DNA of 64,000 nt from a virus. Lineage: Duplodnaviria > Caudoviricetes. The stretch lies in IMG/VR virus record IMGVR_UViG_3300020050_007362, positions 1 through 64,000 of that record; one strand, 5' to 3'. The notes under the pieces were generated by a model. That model was not told where the DNA came from. It was given only the letters and a program-made list of their open reading frames with translations, and did not search any database. The first letter of the stretch is position 1, and every line of letters begins with the position of its first letter. Positions 19,001-64,000 of this stretch are shown here, in pieces. The position numbers and the translations under genes were made by a program.

Positions 19001-22000
19001 TGTTAATTGTTCTTGCATGTCTTTAATAGACTGCTCAAAATCAACAGCGGTAAGACCTGCACCTAAAATATATTCATATTCTTTGGATAAGTCATCTGGT
19101 AAAGATTCTAACTGTTTAGTTAGTTCTGCATCAGCCGTTTGCCAATCTGCTTTATCTAACTTAATAAAATTAGCATTTACGCTTTTTACAAAACTGAATA
19201 CTTCAGCTGCTTTTTGATTAGTTTTAGCGGCTTTTGCTAAAGCTCTATAGGATGCACCATCGCTTGATGGGTGACTCTTCAAATAGAACATAACCGCACT
19301 AAATAGTCTATCTGCTAATTGTGCTTTAGAAAGTCTAGGTGCAATTTCTGTTTTCTTTACAGGTTCAGCTAATTCTCTAGCGGCTTTTAAAACACCGTTT
19401 TGAGCTATTGCCAAACCTTCAGTGTTCTTTGTTTCTGCGTATCTTAATAGAGGTTCTATTAATTGATCCGGTATACTGGAAGGCCAATCTTTTAAATTAT
19501 TACGGTTTAATACACCTGCTCTATCTTGGCCTGTTCTGATAACCGCTATAGCGGCATCATAAGGCCCAGCATTGATAGGCATAATATCTATTTCATTTCT
19601 ATTAGGAATGAATAGGTAGGTATGGTTGCCATAATCTAAAGCAACTCTAGCATCGTCGTATTCTTGCTCTGCTTTAGTTGCATCTCTTAAAAAGACAGTT
19701 TCTGTTTTCTGTACGGGTTCAGCTCTACCTAAATCTTTAATACCTTCTTCATCAAATAATCCGGCAGTTGCTGTACCACCAAAGCCTAACATTTCATCTT
19801 CAAGCGTATCGAGTTCTCTATCAGCTCGTGCTTTTTGCTCAGCAGCTAAATCAGCAGCCGCTTTTTCAGCCGCTAATCGTTTAGCTTCTTTTTGCTGTTC
19901 GAGTATTTCTTCTTGCGTATAGGTCTTTAATAAAGGCGCACCCGGTGTATAAGGTTTTACTTCTTCTGTTTCTCTTCCTGCCGCCTCTTCGCCGCCTTCA
20001 AAACCGCCAACATCTGTTCCCTCGTCATATCCATCAGTAAATCCCCAAAAGTCATTAAGATCATCGCCGGTTACTATGTCACCGTAGTTAAAATCGTCTT
20101 CTACATATTCAATAGCATCGTCAAAATCTGTGCTATCTATAAGTCCTTCTTCTACAGCGTCGTCATATTTTTGTAATTGTCTTGCTTGCTCATCATTGAA
20201 ATTTTCTTTTTCTTGAATAGCCAATAGGTTTTCATGGCCAGCTGGCGTGTAGTATTCGTTTCCTCTTAATGAGTCATATAGCAATTCTGATAAACCATTT
20301 TCACCGTCTATATCATAGCCGTATTGATTTAAAGAAGTTGCCATGTCATCCATGGTTAACGCATTAGTACCATTATTAAAAATGGCTTGGTAACGCCTTC
20401 CTTTATAATCAGAGAAAGCCGATTTAGGTCCGTTAGCGTCCCTAATGCCGCCTAATTTTTTAATAGCGCCTTGAAGCTCTTCTAATCCAGAGGGTGTTGT
20501 GTAAAAAGCCGCTTTTGCTTTTCTTACCTTTTTAGGCTTTATTGGTTTATCCCAAACTTCATTGGTCTTAGCTTTTAGATCGGCCATTGACATAGCGGTA
20601 ATAGCGCCAAAGCCACTCCAACCTGAATTATAGTTTCTTAAGTACGCATCTTTAGCCGCATTAATATTAGGATAGCCAAGCATAACCTTATGCTCATCAA
20701 ATTTATTAGTCTGTTTACCGTTATCATCAACTACATACTGATCAACTACGTAAGCGTATTTAGTTTTATCTTCTTGTTCTTTGGTAAGCCCAACAGGTGT
20801 AAATACATCAAGATGATCTTTATCCGCACCCCTTACATTAGGCATACTTCCATAGTTATCTTCTAATTGTATTTCCCATTTTTCACCATTGGCATCTGTA
20901 CCGGAGCGAACAGTTCCCGCTGGGTTTTCAATAGCGACATGAATACCTTGGAAATCAGCACCGGTTAAAGGGTAGGCTTCTTTTGCTTCAATAGCGGCTT
21001 TGCTGGGTGTTTGTTGTTGATCAGCTGCTGCTGAGACAGGTGCTTGTTTTGCTTCTGGTGCTTTTTCTTCTGTTTTATAGCCAACAAATTCTAAAGTGCC
21101 ATCAGGTAATGTAATTGTTTCTGCTTTTGGCAATTGAACAGGAGTTACTTTAATATCGCTGGTAGCAATCCATGATTCTACACCGGAAGCTGATCTTACT
21201 CTTACTCTTCCATAGGAAGGTGCAGATACAGCAGTAACTTGCTCGCCGTCTTTAGTTTGTAAAGGTGCACCCTCTCTAATTTTATTAGCAAAGGCAACAT
21301 TTTTTACGTTTTCTTTATCCGTATAAAGTCCGGTAATACGTCTTCTCTCAGCAGATAGCTTTTGGCCAGCCGCATTTAAACGCTTACCTCGTTCTTGAGA
21401 GTCACTGATACTATTTGCATATTCTATTTCAAGATTATGGTTTTCGTTAGCGGCATCCCATTCAGTTCGTTGCGTCGGTGTTAATCTATCAAGATTAACT
21501 TTTACGTTATTAACTATGTTCTGTTCTACAGGCGCTACTTTTTGCTCTTCTTGCCCTTGGTCTTCTTGCCCTTCTTTATCGATCTGGGTTGTGTCTTTGC
21601 CTTGGTCATACGCTGTTAATCCTGTAGTAGCTTCCGCACCCGTTGGAGGAATGACGGTTTCACCTTGGGCTTCGCCCATTGAAGGAGGTGCCTGTTCAGT
21701 AGTACCTGCTCCTGGTGTTGTTGGTTGTGCTGCTGTAGTTGGTGTAGCTGTTTCTTTAAGGCCATTTTCTGTTGTTTCTTGTTGTATCGTTCTAAGTTGT
21801 GATAATCGAAGTGTAATATTGTGTATTAAATCGCCTTCACTGGCTTTTAAATACGGCGCACCTAAATCTTTTGCTATCGTTCTTAATCTTCCTAAGTTAG
21901 CGACAGGTGGTGTCGTTCCGTTTTCTACAGCTTGTCTTTTTTGATCTAATAAATCACTAATAGCAAAATCGTATTGGTTTAAAGTATCGTCAATAAAAGA

Positions 22001-25699: not shown

Positions 25700-27163
25700 A
25701 TGGCTATTAAATGTACAACCCCCGAATTTATTGAAAAAGCTAAAAGAGTTCATGGTCTTAAATATGATTATTCTTTAGTAAACTATACTATTTCCAGAAA
25801 TAATGTAACTATTATTTGCCCTATCCACGGTGAGTTTTTACAAAAAGCCAATGGCCATATACAAGGTGCAGGTTGCCAACAATGTTCGGCATTAAGAGTA
25901 GCTGATTTTCATAGAGGTTCTTTAGAAGAGTTTATATTAAAAGCAGTAAAAGTACATGGTAATAAATACGACTATTCAAAAATAGTGTATACCAATCGTA
26001 TGGTTAAAGTACCTATAGTATGTAAACTTCATGGCGTTTTTTTACAATCCCCAAGCCAGCATCTCAGTTATGGTTGTGTAAAATGCAGAGATGTTTTTAA
26101 TTCTATTAATCTAAGAGATACTCAAGAAGATTTCATCACCAAAGCTTTAAGAGTACATGGTGATAAATATGACTACTCTTTTGTTAACTACGTTAAATCA
26201 AATATTAAGGTAGAAATAGTTTGTTCAGAGCATGGGCGTTTTTACCAGAACCCTTATGCCCATTTAAACGGACAGGGTTGTAAATCTTGTTCGGTTGTTG
26301 GTCCTTCTAATGGGGAAATAGAATTGTCCGGTTTTATATCCTCTTTGGTAGGGACAACGTTATCTGATAGAACCACTATTAAACCTTTTGAGTTAGATTG
26401 CTTTGTACCTGCTAAAAAACTAGGCATAGAGTTTTGTGGTATCTACTACCATTCCGATAGATTTAGGGATGCCAACTACCATCTGCATAAGCATGTTTTG
26501 GCTACTGAAGCCGGTTGTGGTCTTATTCAAGTATTTGATGATGAGTGGAGTGATAAAAAAGAGATAGTAAAATCTATAGTAAAAAATAGGCTATGTTTGA
26601 CCGATACAATTACCTACGCCCGTAAAACAATTATTAAAACCGTACCGCTAAAAGAAGCTAAGGAATTTTTAAAAAACAACCATTTGCAAGGTTATGCAAA
26701 TGCTGAAATTCTATTAGGTTTATATCAAAACGGTGAGTTACTAACCCTTACTACTTTTTCAAAAAAGAGGCGGGTTTTAGGCGATATGCCAGATAATTGG
26801 TATGAGTTGGTTAGGTTGTGTACCAAGATAAATACGTCTGTTGTAGGTGGCTTTTCAAAGCTTATTAAACATTTTATAAAAACCTATTTGCCGGATGGTA
26901 TAAAAACCTTTTGTGATAGACGCTATTTTAATGGTTTAGGGTATAGAACTGTTGGGTTTATTGAATCTCATGTTTCTAAACCCAACTATTTTTATGTTAA
27001 ACAAGGTGTTAGGTATTCTAGGTATCAATTTCAAAAGCATAAACTAAAAAACCTACTTTCTGTTTATGACGATTTTTTATCCGAGAAACAAAACATGGTA
27101 CTCAATGGTTATTCTCGGATATATGATTGTGGGAATATAGTTTTTACTATGCAGCTGCGCTAA
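25700..27163 (+). CDS. Hef-like free-standing homing endonuclease (DUF723-like Zn-ribbon repeats plus a PD-(D/E)XK-like domain)
   Basis: Three repeats of FIxKAxxVHGxKYDYS...V.I.C..HG.F.Q....H..G.GC..C, then ELDCFVPAKKLGIEFCGIYYHS and a C-terminal RIYDCGNIVF; opposite strand to its neighbours. Confidence 0.8.
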   Translation: MAIKCTTPEFIEKAKRVHGLKYDYSLVNYTISRNNVTIICPIHGEFLQKANGHIQGAGCQQCSALRVADFHRGSLEEFILKAVKVHGNKYDYSKIVYTNRMVKVPIVCKLHGVFLQSPSQHLSYGCVKCRDVFNSINLRDTQEDFITKALRVHGDKYDYSFVNYVKSNIKVEIVCSEHGRFYQNPYAHLNGQGCKSCSVVGPSNGEIELSGFISSLVGTTLSDRTTIKPFELDCFVPAKKLGIEFCGIYYHSDRFRDANYHLHKHVLATEAGCGLIQVFDDEWSDKKEIVKSIVKNRLCLTDTITYARKTIIKTVPLKEAKEFLKNNHLQGYANAEILLGLYQNGELLTLTTFSKKRRVLGDMPDNWYELVRLCTKINTSVVGGFSKLIKHFIKTYLPDGIKTFCDRRYFNGLGYRTVGFIESHVSKPNYFYVKQGVRYSRYQFQKHKLKNLLSVYDDFLSEKQNMVLNGYSRIYDCGNIVFTMQLR

Positions 27164-57210: not shown

Positions 57211-57254
57211 TTGTTTTTCCCCTAGGCATAGTACAGTATTAAAATATAAAGCTT

Positions 57255-57284
57255 ATAGTACCTACATTTAAAGAAGGTTGTCAA
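57255..57284 (-). promoter_or_regulatory. Sigma70-type promoter at the head of the leftward operon
   Basis: TTGACA-N18-TACTAT on the minus strand. Confidence 0.65.
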
Positions 57285-57415
57285 TTTTTTATTTTTTTAT
57301 TTTTTTTATAAGTATGTTTTAATACATATGGTTTGTTAAAAAAAATAACAATTAAAAACAATATGTTATGTATATGTTTAATCGTTTATACCGTAATGCG
57401 TATTACAGGGTTGTT

Positions 57416-57698
57416 AAAAAGCTGTATACCTTAAAATTACATTAGCTATATTCTATAAAGGTTTAATGATACCTATCCTGCTATCCTGTAGGTATTCAAA
57501 CACCTTCAACTAACCAAACAGTTTAACGTTGTACCTGATTTATTAACGTTACCTATTCTATACTGGTCCCTATACTACTCTATCTACCCCTATTTATTCT
57601 ATCTATACTATTTATTATATTATTATATTATTAAAGGATAGTAGTAGTATAGAGTATATAGATAAAGGGAAATTGTAATTTTGAGTATACAGCTTTTT
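57416..57698. repeat. 25-26 bp imperfect inverted repeat enclosing a 232-bp AT-rich segment
   Basis: AAAAAGCTGTATACCTTAAAATTACA (57416-57441) versus TGTAATTTTGAGTATACAGCTTTTT (57674-57698). Confidence 0.85.
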
Positions 57699-57853
57699 GT
57701 ATGTATTGTAATAAGTCCAAAAATCAATGTTTTTTATTTTTAATAAAAAATTTAAATTGCTTTACTGAACCTGTTGCGGAATAGCCCCTTGGTAAGGATG
57801 CGGCATGGTTTTAACAAGCAACTAATAGCTTTATGGGGGATGGGGGAGTGGGG

Positions 57854-58007
57854 TTAGCTATGAGGGATTAGCTATGAGGGATTAGCTATGAGGGATTAGC
57901 TATGAGGGATTAGCTATGAGGGATTAGCTATCGGCTAAAAGATATGAGGGATTAGCTATGAGGGATTAGCTATCGGCTAAAAGCTATGAGGGATTAGCTA
58001 TCGGCTA
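57854..58007. repeat. Tandem array of 11 x 14-bp units (TTAGCTATGAGGGA and variants)
   Basis: Counted directly; variant units TTAGCTATCGGCTA and AAAG(A/C)TATGAGGGA. Confidence 0.95.
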
Positions 58008-58396
58008 ATAGAGAATTTTTTTTATAAAATTTTTTTCTAAATTTTTGACGAAGCTGTATATATGCGAGGCATGGGGTGGTTACTATTTGCCGTCACCCGA
58101 AAGAGGGGTATACCCCCTTGGGAATGGTAACTTGTTTTTAAAAAATCAAAAATGGCGTGGCGTAGCCACTCCTTACAGCTCTTGACCTTATCAAAATAAA
58201 ACCGAGCGAAGCGAGAACCTACAGGAGCGCAGCGATCTAGCATTTTTTGCACCCCTACAGAGCAACGACAACAAGCCGCCGAAGCCCTGCAAATAGGCGT
58301 TAAATAAACATTTATATTATTAACACCCTTATTTTATACCAGTTTGGACGATATAACGCCCAGAAAACGTTAAAAAACTAGGTAAACAAAGCAACG

Positions 58397-58699
58397 TTAA
58401 ACAACCCCTGCATAGTATCCACGCCGCCGGTGGTTTCTTATGTTATTAAATGGCACCGCGACCAGAGCGCCGCCGGTATACGCCATCATGAAAACCGAAA
58501 GCGCCGCCGGTGAAGCGACGAAAGACCAAGCCGCCGACCAAACACCCGCCGCCGTTTTTGTCTCAATCCTGCACGCCGCAAAACCGGCGTTATCTATTCG
58601 ACGAGCCACGCGCAACAAATCCGCCTCAGTGGAAGCCGTCACAATGTATGTTTTTTGCCTCCAAAAATGCTCACTACGCCACGAAATAGAATTAGCCAT
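58397..58699 (-). CDS. Possible hypothetical protein (100 aa) in the switch region
   Basis: Protein-like composition but a weak RBS; the overlapping + strand ORF looks like a shadow. Confidence 0.3.
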   Translation of the reverse strand: MANSISWRSEHFWRQKTYIVTASTEADLLRVARRIDNAGFAACRIETKTAAGVWSAAWSFVASPAALSVFMMAYTGGALVAVPFNNIRNHRRRGYYAGVV

Positions 58700-58930
58700 G
58701 CAAAGACATTACCATAAAAAAATCAGCTCACCCGCGAGAATTGCCAAAATATCTGCAAGGACACATTATAATATAACATATCAGCTTTTAGCCAATAGCC
58801 ACCAGAGCCCACCAAACCGGAACAGGTATAAATTAAGCAAAGCCCTATAAACAAAAGACTTAAGCAACCCGCCCACCGTAACAAATAACTAAAAAATAGA
58901 TACTATTTAAAAAGAAAATCTAATTTTTAG

Positions 58931-58966
58931 ATGTTATAATATAACATTGTTGTTATATTATAACAT
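58931..58966. promoter_or_regulatory. Double palindrome (operator-like)
   Basis: Perfect 16-bp inverted repeat with a 4-nt spacer; each arm is itself TGTTATA-W-TATAACA. Confidence 0.6.
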
Positions 58967-59064
58967 ATCAAAAAACCACCAGCGACCAGACCAAACCCAA
59001 ACCGCCGAACATCTAAAAGATACAAGCCCACCGCCGCCGCTGTCAAATGCTACAGAAGCCAAAC

Positions 59065-59170
59065 CGATCCCGAAGCGATCCCGAAGCGATCCCGAAACAA
59101 TCCCGAAGCGATCCCGAAGCGATCCCGAAGCGATCCCGAAACAATCCCGAAGCGATCCCGAAGCGATCCC
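59065..59170. repeat. Tandem array of about 9.6 x 11-bp units (CGATCCCGAAG) with a 44-bp higher-order period
   Basis: Counted directly; variants CGATCCCGAAA and CAATCCCGAAG recur every 4 units. Confidence 0.95.
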
Positions 59171-59507
59171 ACCGCCCCTGATCCCTTAGCATTAACCATG
59201 CCAAAAAACAGCTCAAAAACACCCTAAAAACACCCTAAAAACACCGCAACGAGTGCCGGCCAAAACGTAAAAAACTAATTTATTTTGATTTGGTAAGAGC
59301 GCCGAGAAGCGCCGAGTTATAACCTAACCTATTGATTTATATAGCTTTTCTTACATAAAGGCATAAATAACAAATAAACGTTAAAAAAACTATATACACC
59401 CTTTATTAATTGACGTTATAATTTAACCAGTATTTTAATTTAATGTTTTAGTTTTACCCCGCCCCGCCTAACCGGCGACGGCATCACCCAACCGAAGAGG
59501 AACGACC

Positions 59508-60311
59508 ATGGCCACAACCGAAACAATGAACCCAAGCAATACAAGCAAGCTTGACGGCTCAGAGCTTGCCGAATATTTAGCCGCAAGATTCCCAACACCA
59601 ACACCAGCAACCCAACCAACCACCACCGAAAAGGCCGCAACCATGAACGCACCAGCAACCGTTAAAACTTTGACTATTGAACAATTAATAAACAGAGCCG
59701 GACACATTCCCGCCGAGCTGATCCGCTCAACCGTAGCCCAGTTTGGCGACTGGCTTTACTTTCAAGAAAGCGCCGCGAACATCAGCGACCACGGCGCCGC
59801 CGGTGGTTTTACTGGCTTTTCTTATTATCATGACACCCTTGCATTTTTTGACGCTAACAGAGCATCAATTTTAAAAATGGCCGCAGAAATGGCCACCGAT
59901 TGCGGGTACAAATCAAGCTTTGAAATGATGGCCGCTTTTAATTGTTTTGCCGGCCTGACTGATCAAGAAATATTTAACGCCCTGATTGATCCGGAAGCGG
60001 AAGAAAGCACCACCGTTAAAAACGGCCTCGCATGGTTTGCACTCGAAGAAGTAGCACGCGCCGTTTACGACTACCAAAACGACGACGAAGCAGAGGAAGA
60101 CGACGCCGGCGAATGGGAACCAGAAGAAGAACAAGAAAGCCCAATCAACCAATTATGTGAAAGCTGGCTAAACGGTAATATTGCATGGTGTATAGAAGAA
60201 GTAAAAACACATGGTTATACTGTTCAAGCTATACGCGAAGTTTTAATGGAAGAAAAAGGCGCCGACTTTGAAGCCGCCACCAGAGCCGCCGAACGTATGA
60301 AAGGCTATTAA
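59508..60311 (+). CDS. First early protein; acidic, candidate DNA mimic/anti-restriction protein
   Basis: GAGG RBS; HGAAGGFTGFSYYHDTLAFF...KNGLAWFALEEVAR core followed by DDEAEEDDAGEWEPEEEQE. Confidence 0.6.
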   Translation: MATTETMNPSNTSKLDGSELAEYLAARFPTPTPATQPTTTEKAATMNAPATVKTLTIEQLINRAGHIPAELIRSTVAQFGDWLYFQESAANISDHGAAGGFTGFSYYHDTLAFFDANRASILKMAAEMATDCGYKSSFEMMAAFNCFAGLTDQEIFNALIDPEAEESTTVKNGLAWFALEEVARAVYDYQNDDEAEEDDAGEWEPEEEQESPINQLCESWLNGNIAWCIEEVKTHGYTVQAIREVLMEEKGADFEAATRAAERMKGY

Positions 60312-60383
60312 ACCAGAACCAGAACCAGCAACCACGGCCAAGGACGGCCACAACCTAAACCAACCAACCGCAGAGGCTACACA

Positions 60384-61010
60384 ATGAACAAATTAAACGC
60401 CCTATTTATGGAAGCGCAAGAAATAGCACACGAAGCGCAAGCCAGAAAAACCTTAAACGAACGCGCAACACCCAGCGCCGCCGACGTATTAAAAAATTCT
60501 ATTGATGCAATGTTAAAAGACCGCACAGAGCGCGAAAAGTTAGCAATGGAAAAAGCGCAAGCATTCACCGCCGCCCAATCATTAGACGATTTGAGATTGC
60601 AATTTTTAGCCGAAACCTACAACGACTTAATGTCTTTAACTATGGCCGAACTTTTAGAGATTGAACCACCAGCCGCACCACCAGCGCCGCCCGTTATTGA
60701 AACATGGAACACAGGCAACCTATACAGCGAACACGGCCAACGCATAGCGGCGACAAGATTAACCGGCGGAAAATATGCCTTTTTAGATTTAGATAGAGGC
60801 CTCAGCGGGATTTTAACAGAAAACAACAAACCGGAAAGCCTAAGCGCCGCGCATTATGTAGGCGAACAGTACAGAGCCGGAAACTATACAGACGGTTTAT
60901 TTATTTATAATCGCCCTTACGCCGAGGGGAGAGAACTTGAAGAACTGTTAAAAGCCGCCGCCATGACTGCAACAAGTTTAAAAACCGAGTTGAGAGGCCG
61001 AAAAAAATGA
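60384..61010 (+). CDS. Early hypothetical protein (208 aa)
   Basis: GAGG RBS; preceded by hairpin copy 1. Confidence 0.75.
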   Translation: MNKLNALFMEAQEIAHEAQARKTLNERATPSAADVLKNSIDAMLKDRTEREKLAMEKAQAFTAAQSLDDLRLQFLAETYNDLMSLTMAELLEIEPPAAPPAPPVIETWNTGNLYSEHGQRIAATRLTGGKYAFLDLDRGLSGILTENNKPESLSAAHYVGEQYRAGNYTDGLFIYNRPYAEGRELEELLKAAAMTATSLKTELRGRKK

Positions 61011-61177
61011 AAGGAAAAAGCTTTATTTTATCCGGTATCACTGGCTATATTGATCAATATGATTTTATAACATGGCATACTATAGGCGCACACCTTAAAA
61101 GTTTAGCAGATTGCCCCCTAAAAAGAGCCGCCACGACCGCAAAAGAAAAAAGATACACCGAACACCGCCCCAAGTAA
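61007..61177 (+). CDS. Early small protein (56 aa), absent from the ORF track
   Basis: ATGA overlap with the upstream stop; MKGKSFILSGITGYIDQYDFITWHTIGAHL... Confidence 0.55.
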   Translation: MKGKSFILSGITGYIDQYDFITWHTIGAHLKSLADCPLKRAATTAKEKRYTEHRPK

Positions 61178-61270
61178 TAAACGCGCCAAGGACGGCGCAC
61201 AGTTTACCCTTTAGCATTCTATCCAGTGCTAAACGTTAAACTTTAACCAACCAACCGAAAAGGCTACAAC

Positions 61271-61483
61271 ATGAAAAACGCAATTATTAACATCGCCGCC
61301 GCCCTTGCTTTTTTTAGCGCTGGGTATTTTATCGCCGCCAATATGCCAACCCCTAAAGACGTCGTGAAGCTTGAGCACACTAAGAGCGGCCTTTTTATTT
61401 TGGATCAGGGCAGAATTTACACCGTTTCCGAATTGGTCACAACGGCGGATACTTATCAAAAAGTAGAACGCTTACACCCATAA
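61271..61483 (+). CDS. Early small protein with an N-terminal hydrophobic helix
   Basis: MKNAIINIAAALAFFSAGYFIAA signal/anchor-like start. Confidence 0.7.
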   Translation: MKNAIINIAAALAFFSAGYFIAANMPTPKDVVKLEHTKSGLFILDQGRIYTVSELVTTADTYQKVERLHP

Positions 61484-61532
61484 ACGCAACCACCGGCCAA
61501 GGACGGCCACAACCTAAACCAGAGGGCAGACC

Positions 61533-61769
61533 ATGACACCAGCAACCGCACCAGCAACCGCAAAGCCTACAACCAAAGCGCCACGCATTAATAAATTTTT
61601 GTATCTTTACGTTTTACAAGGTTTTTACGGCCAAGGCTGGGAAGACCTAACCGCCAGCGAAAACCGCGCCGAAGTACGCGACAATTTGAAAGATTACCGC
61701 GACAACGAACGCGGAGCCTACAGGATTATAAAAAGAACGGAAGCAAACCCCGAACACATAACCAACTAA
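61533..61769 (+). CDS. Early small protein (78 aa)
   Basis: GAGGGCAGACC leader; YVLQGFYGQGWEDLT...YRIIKR motif. Confidence 0.75.
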   Translation: MTPATAPATAKPTTKAPRINKFLYLYVLQGFYGQGWEDLTASENRAEVRDNLKDYRDNERGAYRIIKRTEANPEHITN

Positions 61770-61784
61770 ACCAAAGGGCAGACC

Positions 61785-61982
61785 ATGAAAATTAAACTAA
61801 CCAACCAGCGCACCGGACGCGCTCAAATTTACCACGTAAGTTATTTATTAAAAATATGTTTATTGATGGCCGGAGGCGGACACGAACCCGCCCAAGTTAG
61901 AAGAGCAGAAAACTTTAAAAAAGAAGTATTAAGAGATAATTTTTTAATGGTGCGAAATTGCACAATAGAAGTATTAATTTAA
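61785..61982 (+). CDS. Early small protein (65 aa)
   Basis: AAGGGCAGACC leader. Confidence 0.7.
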   Translation: MKIKLTNQRTGRAQIYHVSYLLKICLLMAGGGHEPAQVRRAENFKKEVLRDNFLMVRNCTIEVLI

Positions 61983-62011
61983 ACCAAACCATAAACCGAA
62001 GAGGGCAGACC

Positions 62012-62758
62012 ATGAAAGCACAACTAAACACACCAGCAAGCCGCCGCCTGAAAGCCTACAAAGCCAGCGCCGCAAAGTTAACAGAGAGCTATAAAAAGAA
62101 CCATAACAGCGATTATGTGACAACTTGGCAAAAACAACGCTATCCAAAACCGGACGTATTAAGCCGGCCATACTTGACGCGCTCAACCGATAAACAAAAA
62201 TATTTTATCGATTCCCTAGACAGTTTCCCCTGTAAAAAATGGATTGACGCCGAGAAAACCGGCGCCCGCAATATATCATCATGGTATGCGGACAATTACC
62301 AAAACGAGCTTATTACGCCCGCCGTGGTTTTTATTCGCAACCCCAAAGCATTAAACGACGACGACCGCGACAACGCCGGCGTACACATTCAATTTATGCC
62401 GGCAATCTATTGGAGCGACTGCGACAGCGCGACAGTTTACGCCGATTTATACGATTGTATGAACCAAGCCGCACACGCCGCCAACCGTTACGCCGAACGC
62501 ATAGCCGAAGAGGGCAGAGAAGAGGACGCAAAGTATAGAGCAGAGGAAGACATCAGGACGCACCGCGAAATGATCCACGAACTAAACCGCGAAGCCTTGC
62601 CCCTGATAGCAGAGTTAAAAGCACATCCAGAGGGCTACGCGGAACCAATATGCAAAGCGATAAAAAACACCCTCAACGACATAATGTACCAACGTAAAAA
62701 AGCTTTTCAAAATATCGAAAAGTTAGAAGATAATTATTGGAACGCTATCAGCTACTAA
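62012..62758 (+). CDS. Early hypothetical protein
   Basis: Start reassigned to MKAQLN at 62012 (GAAGAGGGCAGACC leader). Confidence 0.75.
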   Translation: MKAQLNTPASRRLKAYKASAAKLTESYKKNHNSDYVTTWQKQRYPKPDVLSRPYLTRSTDKQKYFIDSLDSFPCKKWIDAEKTGARNISSWYADNYQNELITPAVVFIRNPKALNDDDRDNAGVHIQFMPAIYWSDCDSATVYADLYDCMNQAAHAANRYAERIAEEGREEDAKYRAEEDIRTHREMIHELNREALPLIAELKAHPEGYAEPICKAIKNTLNDIMYQRKKAFQNIEKLEDNYWNAISY

Positions 62759-62811
62759 AGCCTACAACCACGGCCACGGACGGCCACAACTCAAACCGAA
62801 GAGGAAAAACC

Positions 62812-63027
62812 ATGTTAAACGGATGCTATTATTTAAACAACACCGGAAGCCGCTGGGTAGTCTATACCAACGGCAAAAAAGAAAAAGTAACACTAGAAAC
62901 AAAGAGCGGCGAACTGATCACCAGAACCGCAATATTTTATGAAAGCTTTGGCAATTTTGGCCTAGTCTGCATCAGCTACAAGGGCAAGAAAATAAAAGTA
63001 TTCCCTGATTCATTACTTGACGATTAA
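62812..63027 (+). CDS. Early small protein
   Basis: Start reassigned to MLNGCYY at 62812 (GAAGAGGAAAAACC leader). Confidence 0.7.
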   Translation: MLNGCYYLNNTGSRWVVYTNGKKEKVTLETKSGELITRTAIFYESFGNFGLVCISYKGKKIKVFPDSLLDD

Positions 63028-63036
63028 GGCGGAACC

Positions 63037-63333
63037 ATGAACGCACCAGAACCAGCAGAACCAACAACCCTTAAAATCTTAAGCATTGACGCATGGGCAG
63101 ATACAGAGCCAAAAAGCTGGAACTGGAACCAATGGTACAACGCCGGCGAGATATCAGAAGAGGCATTGACATGGACACCAAGAAAATTATTAAAATACTT
63201 TAGGGGTGCTGGATTGTTAAGCGCCACAAGCGCCGGAAAATGCGCAATAGAAGACGACCAGTATAATATTGTGATTGTTGACAAAGCAAACCGCCGCCCC
63301 CTGTATGCTATCGAATACGGTAGCCATTACTAA
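63037..63333 (+). CDS. Early small protein (98 aa)
   Basis: Trp-rich LSIDAWAD...WNWNQWY...PLYAIEY. Confidence 0.7.
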   Translation: MNAPEPAEPTTLKILSIDAWADTEPKSWNWNQWYNAGEISEEALTWTPRKLLKYFRGAGLLSATSAGKCAIEDDQYNIVIVDKANRRPLYAIEYGSHY

Positions 63334-63353
63334 ACCACAACCAAGAGAAAATT

Positions 63354-63509
63354 ATGTTTACAGATTATTATAAAGGCTGTTACATCCACGGATATTTTAA
63401 CCATCCAGCCGTAAGAGTATCTTTTTGCCATGGTTACGGAACTACACCCTACAAGACCATGAAAGCCGCTAAACGCGCAATATCGATATTCGTTAAGAAC
63501 GGCGGATAA
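63354..63509 (+). CDS. Early small protein (51 aa), absent from the ORF track
   Basis: MFTDYYKGCYIHGYFNHPAVRVSFCHGYGTTPYKTMKAAKRAISIFVKNGG. Confidence 0.6.
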   Translation: MFTDYYKGCYIHGYFNHPAVRVSFCHGYGTTPYKTMKAAKRAISIFVKNGG

Positions 63510-63561
63510 ACCCACAATCCTAGCGCCAAGGACGGCCACAACTTAAAACCGGAGTAATACC

Positions 63562-63723
63562 ATGGAAAAATACCTTATAGCGTTGCCAGTATTTAAAGGC
63601 GGGACAGGCTATAACCATCAAACAATATTGGTCAGCGCTACCAATAAAAGCGATGCTATAGCTATAGCAAGGCATTTAAAACCTGATTGTAATATAGGTG
63701 ATGTCAAACAAGTAAACTATTAG
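63562..63723 (+). CDS. Early small protein (53 aa), absent from the ORF track
   Basis: GGAG RBS; MEKYLIALPVFKGGTGYNHQTILVSATNKSDAIAIARHLKPDCNIGDVKQVNY. Confidence 0.65.
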   Translation: MEKYLIALPVFKGGTGYNHQTILVSATNKSDAIAIARHLKPDCNIGDVKQVNY

Positions 63724-63841
63724 AATAAGCCCACAACCCTAGCGCCAAGGACGGCGCAAGCTTATCAGTTAGCATTTTACCAAGTGCTAACCGCTAAACT
63801 TAATTAACCAGAACCCAATCATAAACCGAAGAGGACAGACC

Positions 63842-64000
63842 ATGACAACACCAGAGCGCCCTTATTTTTGTTACTACGTTAAAAATAACGTTTTGTATTT
63901 TAGGCACGAAGACGGACGGAACGGAGGCGAACCCCTGAACCTGAAGCAAGAAACAAAAGAGCAAGCAGTACAACGCTTGACGGCTCAACTGGGATTAATT
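63842..64000 (+). CDS. Early small protein, partial
   Basis: GAAGAGGACAGACC leader; open to the window end. Confidence 0.6.
   Translation, partial: MTTPERPYFCYYVKNNVLYFRHEDGRNGGEPLNLKQETKEQAVQRLTAQLGLI

Follow-up and report, generated by a model that had tools for sequence, protein, structure and literature searches.

A hairpin with a constant GGA loop between early genes of a freshwater phage and in other aquatic phages

A 64,000-nucleotide (nt) stretch of viral DNA (Duplodnaviria; Caudoviricetes), here called the window, comprises bases 1–64000 of the 75,368-bp record IMGVR_UViG_3300020050_007362 (G000). Between small genes near its right end it carries several copies of a short hairpin that displays GGA in a six-nucleotide loop. 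Why does the same hairpin stand behind one early gene after another, and what might read its loop? A preliminary description had noticed six copies and interpreted them as docking sites for host proteins of the CsrA/RsmA family. The present analysis indicates that the hairpin is a strand-specific structure under selection, that it is tied to the end of the upstream gene, that it marks the joints of gene cassettes, and that it recurs in aquatic phages of otherwise unrelated kinds.

Hairpin copies and their constraint

The six-copy repeat proved real. Its core, GCCANGGACGGC, occurs in the window at 60337, 61185, 61496, 62773, 63525 and 63744, compared with 0.01 copies expected from shuffled sequences. 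All six copies are on the plus strand and none is on the minus strand, and the seventh and last copy of the whole 75,368-bp record lies at 64492, just past the end of the window; the seven copies thus share one strand and span 4.2 kb. Counted over the whole genome, the copies are confined to these 4.2 kb of the early array and are not scattered, and a search of either strand of G000 revealed no other convincing A-N-GGA-N loop closed by at least three pairs. As first described, the hairpins occupy intergenic gaps only: 7/7 G000 copies lie between small plus-strand genes, with the upstream stop codon 5–24 nt before the hairpin and the next ATG 24–86 nt after it (184 nt for copy 7). The copies in the window are the following.

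60336–60349, plus strand: hairpin copy 1 (type A), GGCC-AAGGAC-GGCC then ACAAC; starts 24 nt past the stop codon and ends 34 nt before the ATG
61183–61198, plus strand: hairpin copy 2 (type B), GCGCC-AAGGAC-GGCGC; 5 nt past the stop codon
61495–61508, plus strand: hairpin copy 3 (type A), GGCC-AAGGAC-GGCC; the orthologous copy in the relative G001 has the loop ACGGAC
62772–62785, plus strand: hairpin copy 4 (type A), GGCC-ACGGAC-GGCC; the orthologous copy in G001 has the loop ATGGAC
63523–63538, plus strand: hairpin copy 5 (hybrid), left arm GCGCC (type B) and right arm GGCCA (type A); left joint of a 219-bp cassette
63742–63757, plus strand: hairpin copy 6 (type B), GCGCC-AAGGAC-GGCGC; right joint of the 219-bp cassette

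Type A has a GGCC/GGCC stem followed by ACAAC (copies 1, 3 and 4), and type B has a GCGCC/GGCGC stem (copies 2, 6 and 7). The small hairpins contain 4–5 stem pairs with folding energies of −7.6 to −10 kcal/mol, and a U-tract is absent from most copies. The ACGGAC of copy 4 is the sole loop change among the G000 copies, in agreement with the earlier account. The compensatory stem changes claimed for the array were confirmed for copies 1–4 and 6 and not for copy 5, whose hybrid arms leave three pairs; copy 5 is a recombination joint, a recombinant hybrid with no compensated stem.

The loop is kept while the stem around it changes. Stems with a kept loop include GGCC, GCGCC/GGCGC, GGCCC/GGGCC, GGCGC/GCGCC, GAGC/GCTC, AAGC/GCTT, TGCCC/GGGCA, ACGGC/GCCGT, GCGGCC/GGCCGC and TCGGCC/GGCCGA; those from GGCCC/GGGCC onwards belong to hairpins in the contigs of the other carriers described below and played no part in finding those contigs. 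At least 8 stem sequences occur with covarying arms, and the loop stays A-N-GGA-Y within a C-G closing pair. In an alignment of 30 sequences (A2), no sequence departs from A, G, G and A in these four loop columns and 28/30 close the loop with C-G, with all four bases at loop position 2 and C or U, rarely A, at the last loop position. Homologues that freely varied the GGA would speak against a role for it, and GGA was constant in all relatives examined. The covariation score of the 30-sequence alignment was 0.565, compared with 0.118 in shuffles (0/500 reached the observed value) and at most 0.096 with slid partners. The four inner pairs were the selection criterion of this alignment, and the independent evidence consists of the variety of pair types, the fifth pair and a loop census. 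The fifth pair, outside the selection, is paired in 19/30 sequences with four pair types. In the census, from which the ascertainment pattern had been removed, A.GGA. outnumbered every other 6-nt loop of the sense strand, with 26 occurrences vs. 4–5 in reversed and antisense controls. Moreover, hairpins were co-oriented with genes in 76 cases vs. 10, and the folding energy of the small hairpin did not discriminate between strands. Taken together, these results show that the hairpin is a selected and strand-specific structure.

Behind every type-B hairpin stands a second, interrupted stem-loop of about 17 pairs that ends in the conserved sequence GTGCTAAMCGYTAAACTT and has no U-tract.

61201–61242, plus strand: second stem-loop behind copy 2; sense fold z-score −5.7
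63758–63801, plus strand: second stem-loop behind copy 6; sense fold z-score −3.7
about 64516–64566 of the genome, plus strand: the third such stem-loop, in a type-B module outside the window

The z-scores were −5.7, −3.7 and −3.9 in the sense direction and −2.8, −3.3 and +0.2 in the antisense direction. Compensatory changes were seen at two pairs, U-A to G-C at one and C-G through U·G to U-A at the other, and a conserved U·G pair fits the sense strand only. The sense-only U·G pairs and the z-scores argue that the hairpin region would act as sense RNA. The early-gene RNase III hairpins of T7 are likewise stem-loops between cistrons of a polycistronic early message transcribed by the host polymerase, and the second stem-loop is comparable to them in size, whereas the GGA hairpin is far too short for RNase III. 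One could speculate that the second stem-loop is an RNase III-size processing site that leaves the GGA hairpin at a 3′ end.

The position of the hairpin relative to genes was compared in 67 unique intergenic copies. The distance from stop codon to hairpin had a median of 10 nt (interquartile range (IQR) 9–16 nt), and that from hairpin to ATG had a median of 26 nt (IQR 21–71 nt, range 10 to more than 180 nt). Given the tight stop spacing, the loose ATG spacing and the promoters that lie between hairpin and next gene in the carrier genome G004, the constant anchor is the end of the upstream cistron, and the hairpin is tethered to the upstream stop codon. No promoter-like site was found beside the hairpins of the window, where type-A copies leave just 24–34 nt before the ATG.

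Cassette joints and the wider family of carriers

The close relative G001 is an IMG/VR contig of 89.7 kb with terminal repeats, rated complete, and 87–94% identical to G000 in the hairpin region. It holds eight hairpin copies on one strand within 4.7 kb, and in both genomes the copies are restricted to the early array. Orthologous hairpins of the two differ only at loop position 2, with A to C in copy 3 and C to T in copy 4. Four cassette-sized indels distinguish G000 from G001, and three of them are bounded by hairpins: a small gene present only in G001 sits between two type-A hairpins, another G001-only gene sits between two type-B hairpins, and a 219-bp cassette with a 53-amino-acid open reading frame (ORF; 63562–63723) lies between copies 5 and 6 of G000 and is missing from G001 and from lake metagenome contigs. 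The fourth indel (a 65-amino-acid ORF, 61785–61982) is bounded by a translation-initiation repeat, AAACCGAAGAGGnCAGACC-ATG, with no hairpin.

Joints of the same kind occur in freshwater metagenome contigs of three studies. One joint, 63510 to 63730, skips 219 bases (runs X1 and X2); another, 63758 to 61203 (run X5), links copy 6, at its 3′ end, to the bases that follow copy 2; 61243 to 61995 is a further one among others. The hybrid arms of copy 5 are the exact product expected of a crossover inside the hairpin. Hairpins mark cassette boundaries and crossover points, with insertions, deletions and permutations joined in or next to them. The picture of an early array punctuated by hairpins was sound as far as it went; the cassette boundaries, the tether to the upstream stop and the wide sharing had escaped the preliminary description.

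The wider family was searched with the 19-mer GGCCANGGACGGCCACAAC in IMG/VR and JGI metagenome contigs. Many matches were ORFs of GC-rich DNA, and about 45 marine or freshwater contigs (GC 36–62%) showed a fixed, phage-like context around the hairpin, in the order stop codon, about ten A/C-rich bases, hairpin, Shine-Dalgarno sequence (SD) and ATG. Carriers outside G000 and G001 contributed about 50 unique hairpin copies, many contigs having a single copy. They include G004, a complete 67-kb IMG/VR genome in which the largest ORF encodes a tail protein of siphovirus type, and the 43-kb genome G006; neither has an ORF of more than 1181 amino acids, and the largest ORFs of both are tail proteins. 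In the contigs L003 and L007, the hairpin stands after the first gene behind sigma-70-type promoters, beside genome-end-like sequence. At reverse-strand positions 21346 and 38892 of G004 (loci L179 and L180), a T-run and a good sigma-70-type promoter lie between the hairpin and the gene that comes next; the two promoters are near-identical (TTGTTGYA..GCCCTAAAGGTT..TATAAT), each part of a full stem-loop-plus-promoter cassette. One marine carrier clade encodes a T7-gp4-like primase-helicase, and the enzymes closest to it come from Pelagibacter and Roseobacter phages (45–50% identity). No protein family common to the carrier lineages was found, most contigs being fragments in which a factor could be missed. 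The carriers are otherwise unrelated phages, podovirus-like and siphovirus included. A conserved 48-amino-acid protein with a basic N-terminus and one transmembrane helix (MNSALKRKLRKQ...) is encoded by eight marine contigs (L071, L077, L085, L088, L096, L100, L104 and L147), and its gene lies directly behind the hairpin in L085, L100 and L147.

Narrower and cultured searches gave little. An 18-mer of the type-B module matched G001 plus one unrelated hit only, and a single-protein search for distant relatives of one array gene returned G001 only. When the hairpin and its flanks were compared by BLAST with 50,697 phage records, no GGA-loop copy was detected in cultured phages. The only near match, GGCC-AACAAC-GGCC-ACAAC in Pseudomonas phage phiPsa374, is found among 5′-untranslated-region (5′-UTR) hairpins with unrelated loops, and its similarity in stem and flank was put down to chance. 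In that phage (L185, 91.7–94.3 kb of the record), several early promoters are followed by GC-rich 5′-UTR hairpins in CA-rich leaders, with the loops AACAAC, ACAATG, AAACAA and AGGAA, and a sigma-70 promoter immediately precedes the GGCC/ACAAC look-alike. No GGA-loop hairpins of this kind are present in Pelagibacter phage HTVC104P, which among cultured phages has the primase closest to that of one carrier clade, and bases 1–50,000 of the T4-like phage RB49 contain no such loop. T4 shows a mild strand-biased excess of CANGGAYG (15 vs. 7; controls 8 and 6).

It had been stated that no phage system of this form was described. That statement must be narrowed, as the PeSL and PmSL cassettes of T4-type phages are a known analogue (Arbiol et al., 2010, PMC2839356; Comeau et al., 2014, PMC4122927), and it stands, within the literature searched, for the fixed A-N-GGA-Y loop, a feature of the phage hairpin that the PeSL papers do not describe. 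Both elements are repeated intergenic stem-loop motifs that flank small ORFan genes and bound indels or replacements between close relatives. PeSL crossovers fall within the loop and give chimeric elements (PMC2839356), as in copy 5 of the window, and the order stem-loop, promoter, SD-ATG of two G004 copies is the PeSL order of stem-loop then promoter (PMC4122927). In contrast to PeSLs with their strong sigma-70-type early promoter, most copies of the phage hairpin are intercistronic with no adjacent promoter, and the stem has just 4–5 pairs and no U-tract. Furthermore, PeSLs lie in the hyperplastic regions of T4-like myoviruses, whereas the hairpin carriers are not T4-like: they include a phage with an SU10-type portal and a polyvalent protein, the siphovirus-like G004, and others.

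G000 itself is linear according to IMG/VR and 84% complete according to CheckV, and the DNA runs that contain the stretch come from freshwater, river or lake metagenomes; no RNA run was listed for it. Its leftward arm (610–57210) codes for virion proteins, including an SU10-type portal and tail proteins. A giant polyvalent protein of 3539 amino acids carries InPase, ART-PolyVal and LPD39 domains and a DarB-like C-terminus. G000 is podovirus-like. Among relatives considered for host inference, the portal, tail and primase matches are at most 31–50% identical, and no host was assigned. The features of the early array are listed below.

59393–59422, plus strand: best sigma-70-like promoter match, ahead of the array's first gene; TATACA-18-TATAAT, 10/12 positions match
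59508–64000, continuing to about 72.3 kb of the genome, plus strand: array of small early-type genes
59488–59510, 61512–61535, 61990–62014, 62790–62814 and 63820–63844, plus strand: AAACCGAAGAGGnCAGACC-ATG repeats

A putative early polycistronic transcript would start at the promoter match. Two array proteins have distant homologues in phiCbK-like and SPO1-like phages, where these are encoded in terminal repeats or early regions, and the label "early" for the array genes seems reasonable. The first 5.2 kb of the array has an A+C-rich sense strand, its intergenic parts containing 38% A, 31% C, 18% G and 13% T, and the near-identical translation-initiation region listed above is repeated before many array genes.

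Several neighbouring features were also recorded. A gene-poor stretch of 2.3 kb (57211–59500) separates the divergent arms and holds a 14-bp tandem array (about 57860–58000), an 11-bp array (about 59068–59170) and palindromic TGTTATAATATAACA-like boxes, repeated twice (about 58760 and 58930–58965); these arrays and boxes may be genome-end, origin or operator sites. A resolvase/invertase-type serine recombinase of 198 amino acids (65832–66428 of the genome) lies just past the hairpin array (region 65061–66428; locus L191, 8061–9428), and near-identical starts, MPTTEEDIKM and MPTTEEDTQM, in the recombinase and the preceding 196-amino-acid ORF suggest that the two genes share a duplicated 5′ end. 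An HNH/homing-endonuclease gene (487 amino acids; 25700–27163, plus strand; phrog_559, E 3e-119) sits on the opposite strand within the leftward virion arm, in the manner of a mobile insertion. No tRNA genes were found in the window.

What may read the loop

The published RsmA/RsmF consensus is 5′-CANGGAYG, in which N is any base, GGA is invariant, Y is C or U, and GGA lies in the loop of a stem-loop (10.1101/315341). The phage loop and its closing pair fit this consensus at the specified positions, which bears out the core match noted at the outset; in the 30-sequence alignment two closing pairs deviate from C-G and a few last bases are A. GGA is displayed in the loop of a short stem-loop in 7 copies of G000, 8 of G001 and about 50 unique copies elsewhere, and the positions that are free in CANGGAYG are those that vary in the phage element. 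This match is the strongest positive argument for CsrA, and it is one of resemblance. Sites of CsrA, RsmA, RsmE and RsmF share with the phage element the C-G closing pair, the A, the free N, the GGA, the Y and the hexaloop display. Unlike these sites, the phage hairpins stand after stop codons in coding polycistronic mRNA; typical repressed CsrA targets overlap the SD, which the phage hairpins do not, and sponge small RNAs pack their sites densely in a small RNA, whereas the phage hairpins are spread out. Since no protein family is common to the carrier lineages and these include both podovirus-like and siphovirus carriers, a host reader would be preferred to a phage one.

In the explanation that we favour, the loop would serve as a dock for a GGA-specific protein, most likely host CsrA/Rsm, that tunes the neighbouring cistrons; we assign it a probability of roughly 0.4. 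The hairpin would be transcribed inside an early polycistronic RNA made by the host polymerase, and the GGA-specific RNA-binding protein would dock on the fixed loop. The docked protein would then adjust how stable the 3′ end of the upstream cistron is, how strongly the next cistron is translated, or both, according to the physiological state of the host. Because the element is repeated, it could double as a homology patch for cassette shuffling. Docking of a CsrA-family protein of any kind on the loop is itself a tentative proposal, short of an even bet. A bolder version, in which the horizontally mobile hairpin is a plug-in CsrA/Rsm docking site that wires captured early genes into the host Csr/Rsm network or collectively drains it, is possible, with the odds clearly against it.

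Several observations weigh against CsrA as the reader. The csrA gene is lineage-restricted: it was present in 123/151 genomes of the class of an Alloalcanivorax genome (121/149 without the two unpublished genomes G292 and G394), in 22/121 genomes of the class of a Tritonibacter genome, and in 0/121 genomes sampled from the order of a Massilia genome. This last order, which we take to be Burkholderiales, presumably includes typical freshwater hosts. For the primase of one carrier clade, the closest cultured relatives are those of phages that infect Pelagibacter and Roseobacter, though identity is only 45–50%. GGA was present in the downstream SD region of 63% of hairpin-preceded starts and 58% of other starts (p = 0.63), and with no such enrichment the classic two-site CsrA bridge has no specific support. 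Most copies also keep the stem GGCC and the 3′ flank ACAAC, beyond the needs of CsrA recognition; this conservation may come partly from ascertainment, as the search pattern included both, and partly from horizontal spread of one cassette. No phage-encoded CsrA (PF02599) matched in G000, G001 or G004–G008, and a literature search returned no report tying phage intercistronic hairpins to CsrA. In addition, RsmA reportedly represses CRISPR-Cas in Serratia (PMC8450108), and titrating RsmA therefore need not help a phage.

Would the hairpin serve equally well as structural punctuation, that is, as an attenuator, terminator or 3′-end-protecting stem-loop of a PeSL-like cassette with no part for CsrA? 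The loop would then be kept by another reader or by horizontal spread of one successful cassette. Such a role fits a hairpin that is tight to the upstream stop and loose to the next start, the absence of a GGA excess at downstream SD regions, the T-run and good sigma-70-type promoter behind two G004 copies, as in PeSLs (PMC4122927), and the cassette joints at hairpins, comparable to PeSL crossovers (PMC2839356). However, a stem of 4–5 pairs, mostly with no U-tract, would make a poor intrinsic terminator or exonuclease block, and hitch-hiking cannot account for stem change through many sequences with a constant A-N-GGA-Y loop. As the stem varies while the loop stays, a sequence-specific reader would still be required, and we regard punctuation alone as an unlikely, still substantial, alternative to docking.

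A reader of that kind could also be encoded by the phage, as an early RNA-binding protein or endoribonuclease that times the shut-off or read-through of the early transcript. T4 RegB cuts GGAG in early messages, and lambda N-boxB is an antiterminator system; the phage hairpin has a boxB-like size and placement and a GGA core like that of RegB targets. The confinement of the G000 and G001 copies to the early array agrees with such a factor. The carriers, however, are otherwise unrelated phages with no protein family in common, mostly known as fragment contigs in which the factor may be missed, and a phage-encoded reader is improbable.

The favoured CsrA reading had first been put forward together with a sponge, in which the early transcript, like CsrB or RsmZ, has the titration of host CsrA as its main job. 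What survives of that interpretation is a real, strand-specific and structurally constrained element that matches the consensus; the sponge is its weakest version. That a single, highly expressed early transcript has seven sites of consensus grade would suit it. Known sponge RNAs, however, carry many sites within a few hundred nt, compared with a density here of one site per about 600 nt of coding mRNA; many carrier contigs show one copy; and the fixed position of the site relative to stop codons points to a role in cis. Furthermore, no match to any Rfam family, those of Csr/Rsm small RNAs included, was found at E ≤ 1 in 57–64 kb. Titration as the main function is distinctly improbable.

A role of the hairpin in DNA was also considered, as a site-specific recombination site resembling integron attC and used by the phage serine recombinase at 65832–66428. 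The cassette boundaries, the hybrid copy 5 and the resolvase/invertase-type gene just downstream of the array are what such a site might leave. On the other hand, one of the four G000/G001 indels is bounded by the translation-initiation repeat instead, and the metagenome joints scatter over several bases within the shared flank, so that ordinary homologous exchange fits. No recombinase family is common to the other carrier lineages, and a DNA site would need neither strict co-orientation with genes nor the stop tether. The hairpin is probably not a dedicated recombinase site, which we consider very improbable.

An N4-type promoter in single-stranded DNA, used by an RNA polymerase that enters the cell with the giant virion protein, is hardly credible. 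The early promoters of N4 are similar in being short hairpins, on one strand and upstream of early genes, whose stems covary around a conserved loop, and G000 has a 3539-amino-acid virion-arm protein in the window and hairpins upstream of early genes with short leaders. The N4 hairpin promoter loop, however, is 3 nt as against 6 nt here; the giant protein had no RNA-polymerase match in Pfam, PHROGs or PDB; and no T7-type RNA polymerase was found, in a search (PF00940) that is weak alone, being silent in every control genome. This suggestion of the preliminary description was rejected, since other carriers are without a giant protein or RNA polymerase, as in G004 and G006 with tail proteins as their largest ORFs, and ordinary sigma-70-type promoters are present before the first early gene (L003 and L007) and after two G004 hairpins. 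A host repetitive extragenic palindrome, or a CRISPR repeat, is dismissed, as the 19-mer gave 26 single matches and no arrays in 185,579 species genomes (one genome per species), nearly all in ORFs of GC-rich DNA.

Implications for phage early expression

The cassette behaviour is, by analogy, a non-T4 variant of the PeSLs (PMC2839356, PMC4122927), and the features undescribed in the literature searched are the constancy of the A-N-GGA-Y loop and its occurrence in aquatic phages of unrelated kinds. Even without CsrA, PeSL-style shuffling of regulatory cassettes is thereby seen outside T4-like phages, and the hairpin provides a sharply defined, easily synthesised RNA motif, GGCC-ANGGAC-GGCC. 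If CsrA reads the loop, the hairpin would represent a widespread, undescribed route that couples early expression of lytic phages to the carbon or stress state of the host, or disturbs that state, carried on a portable module of 16–20 nt that travels with gene cassettes.

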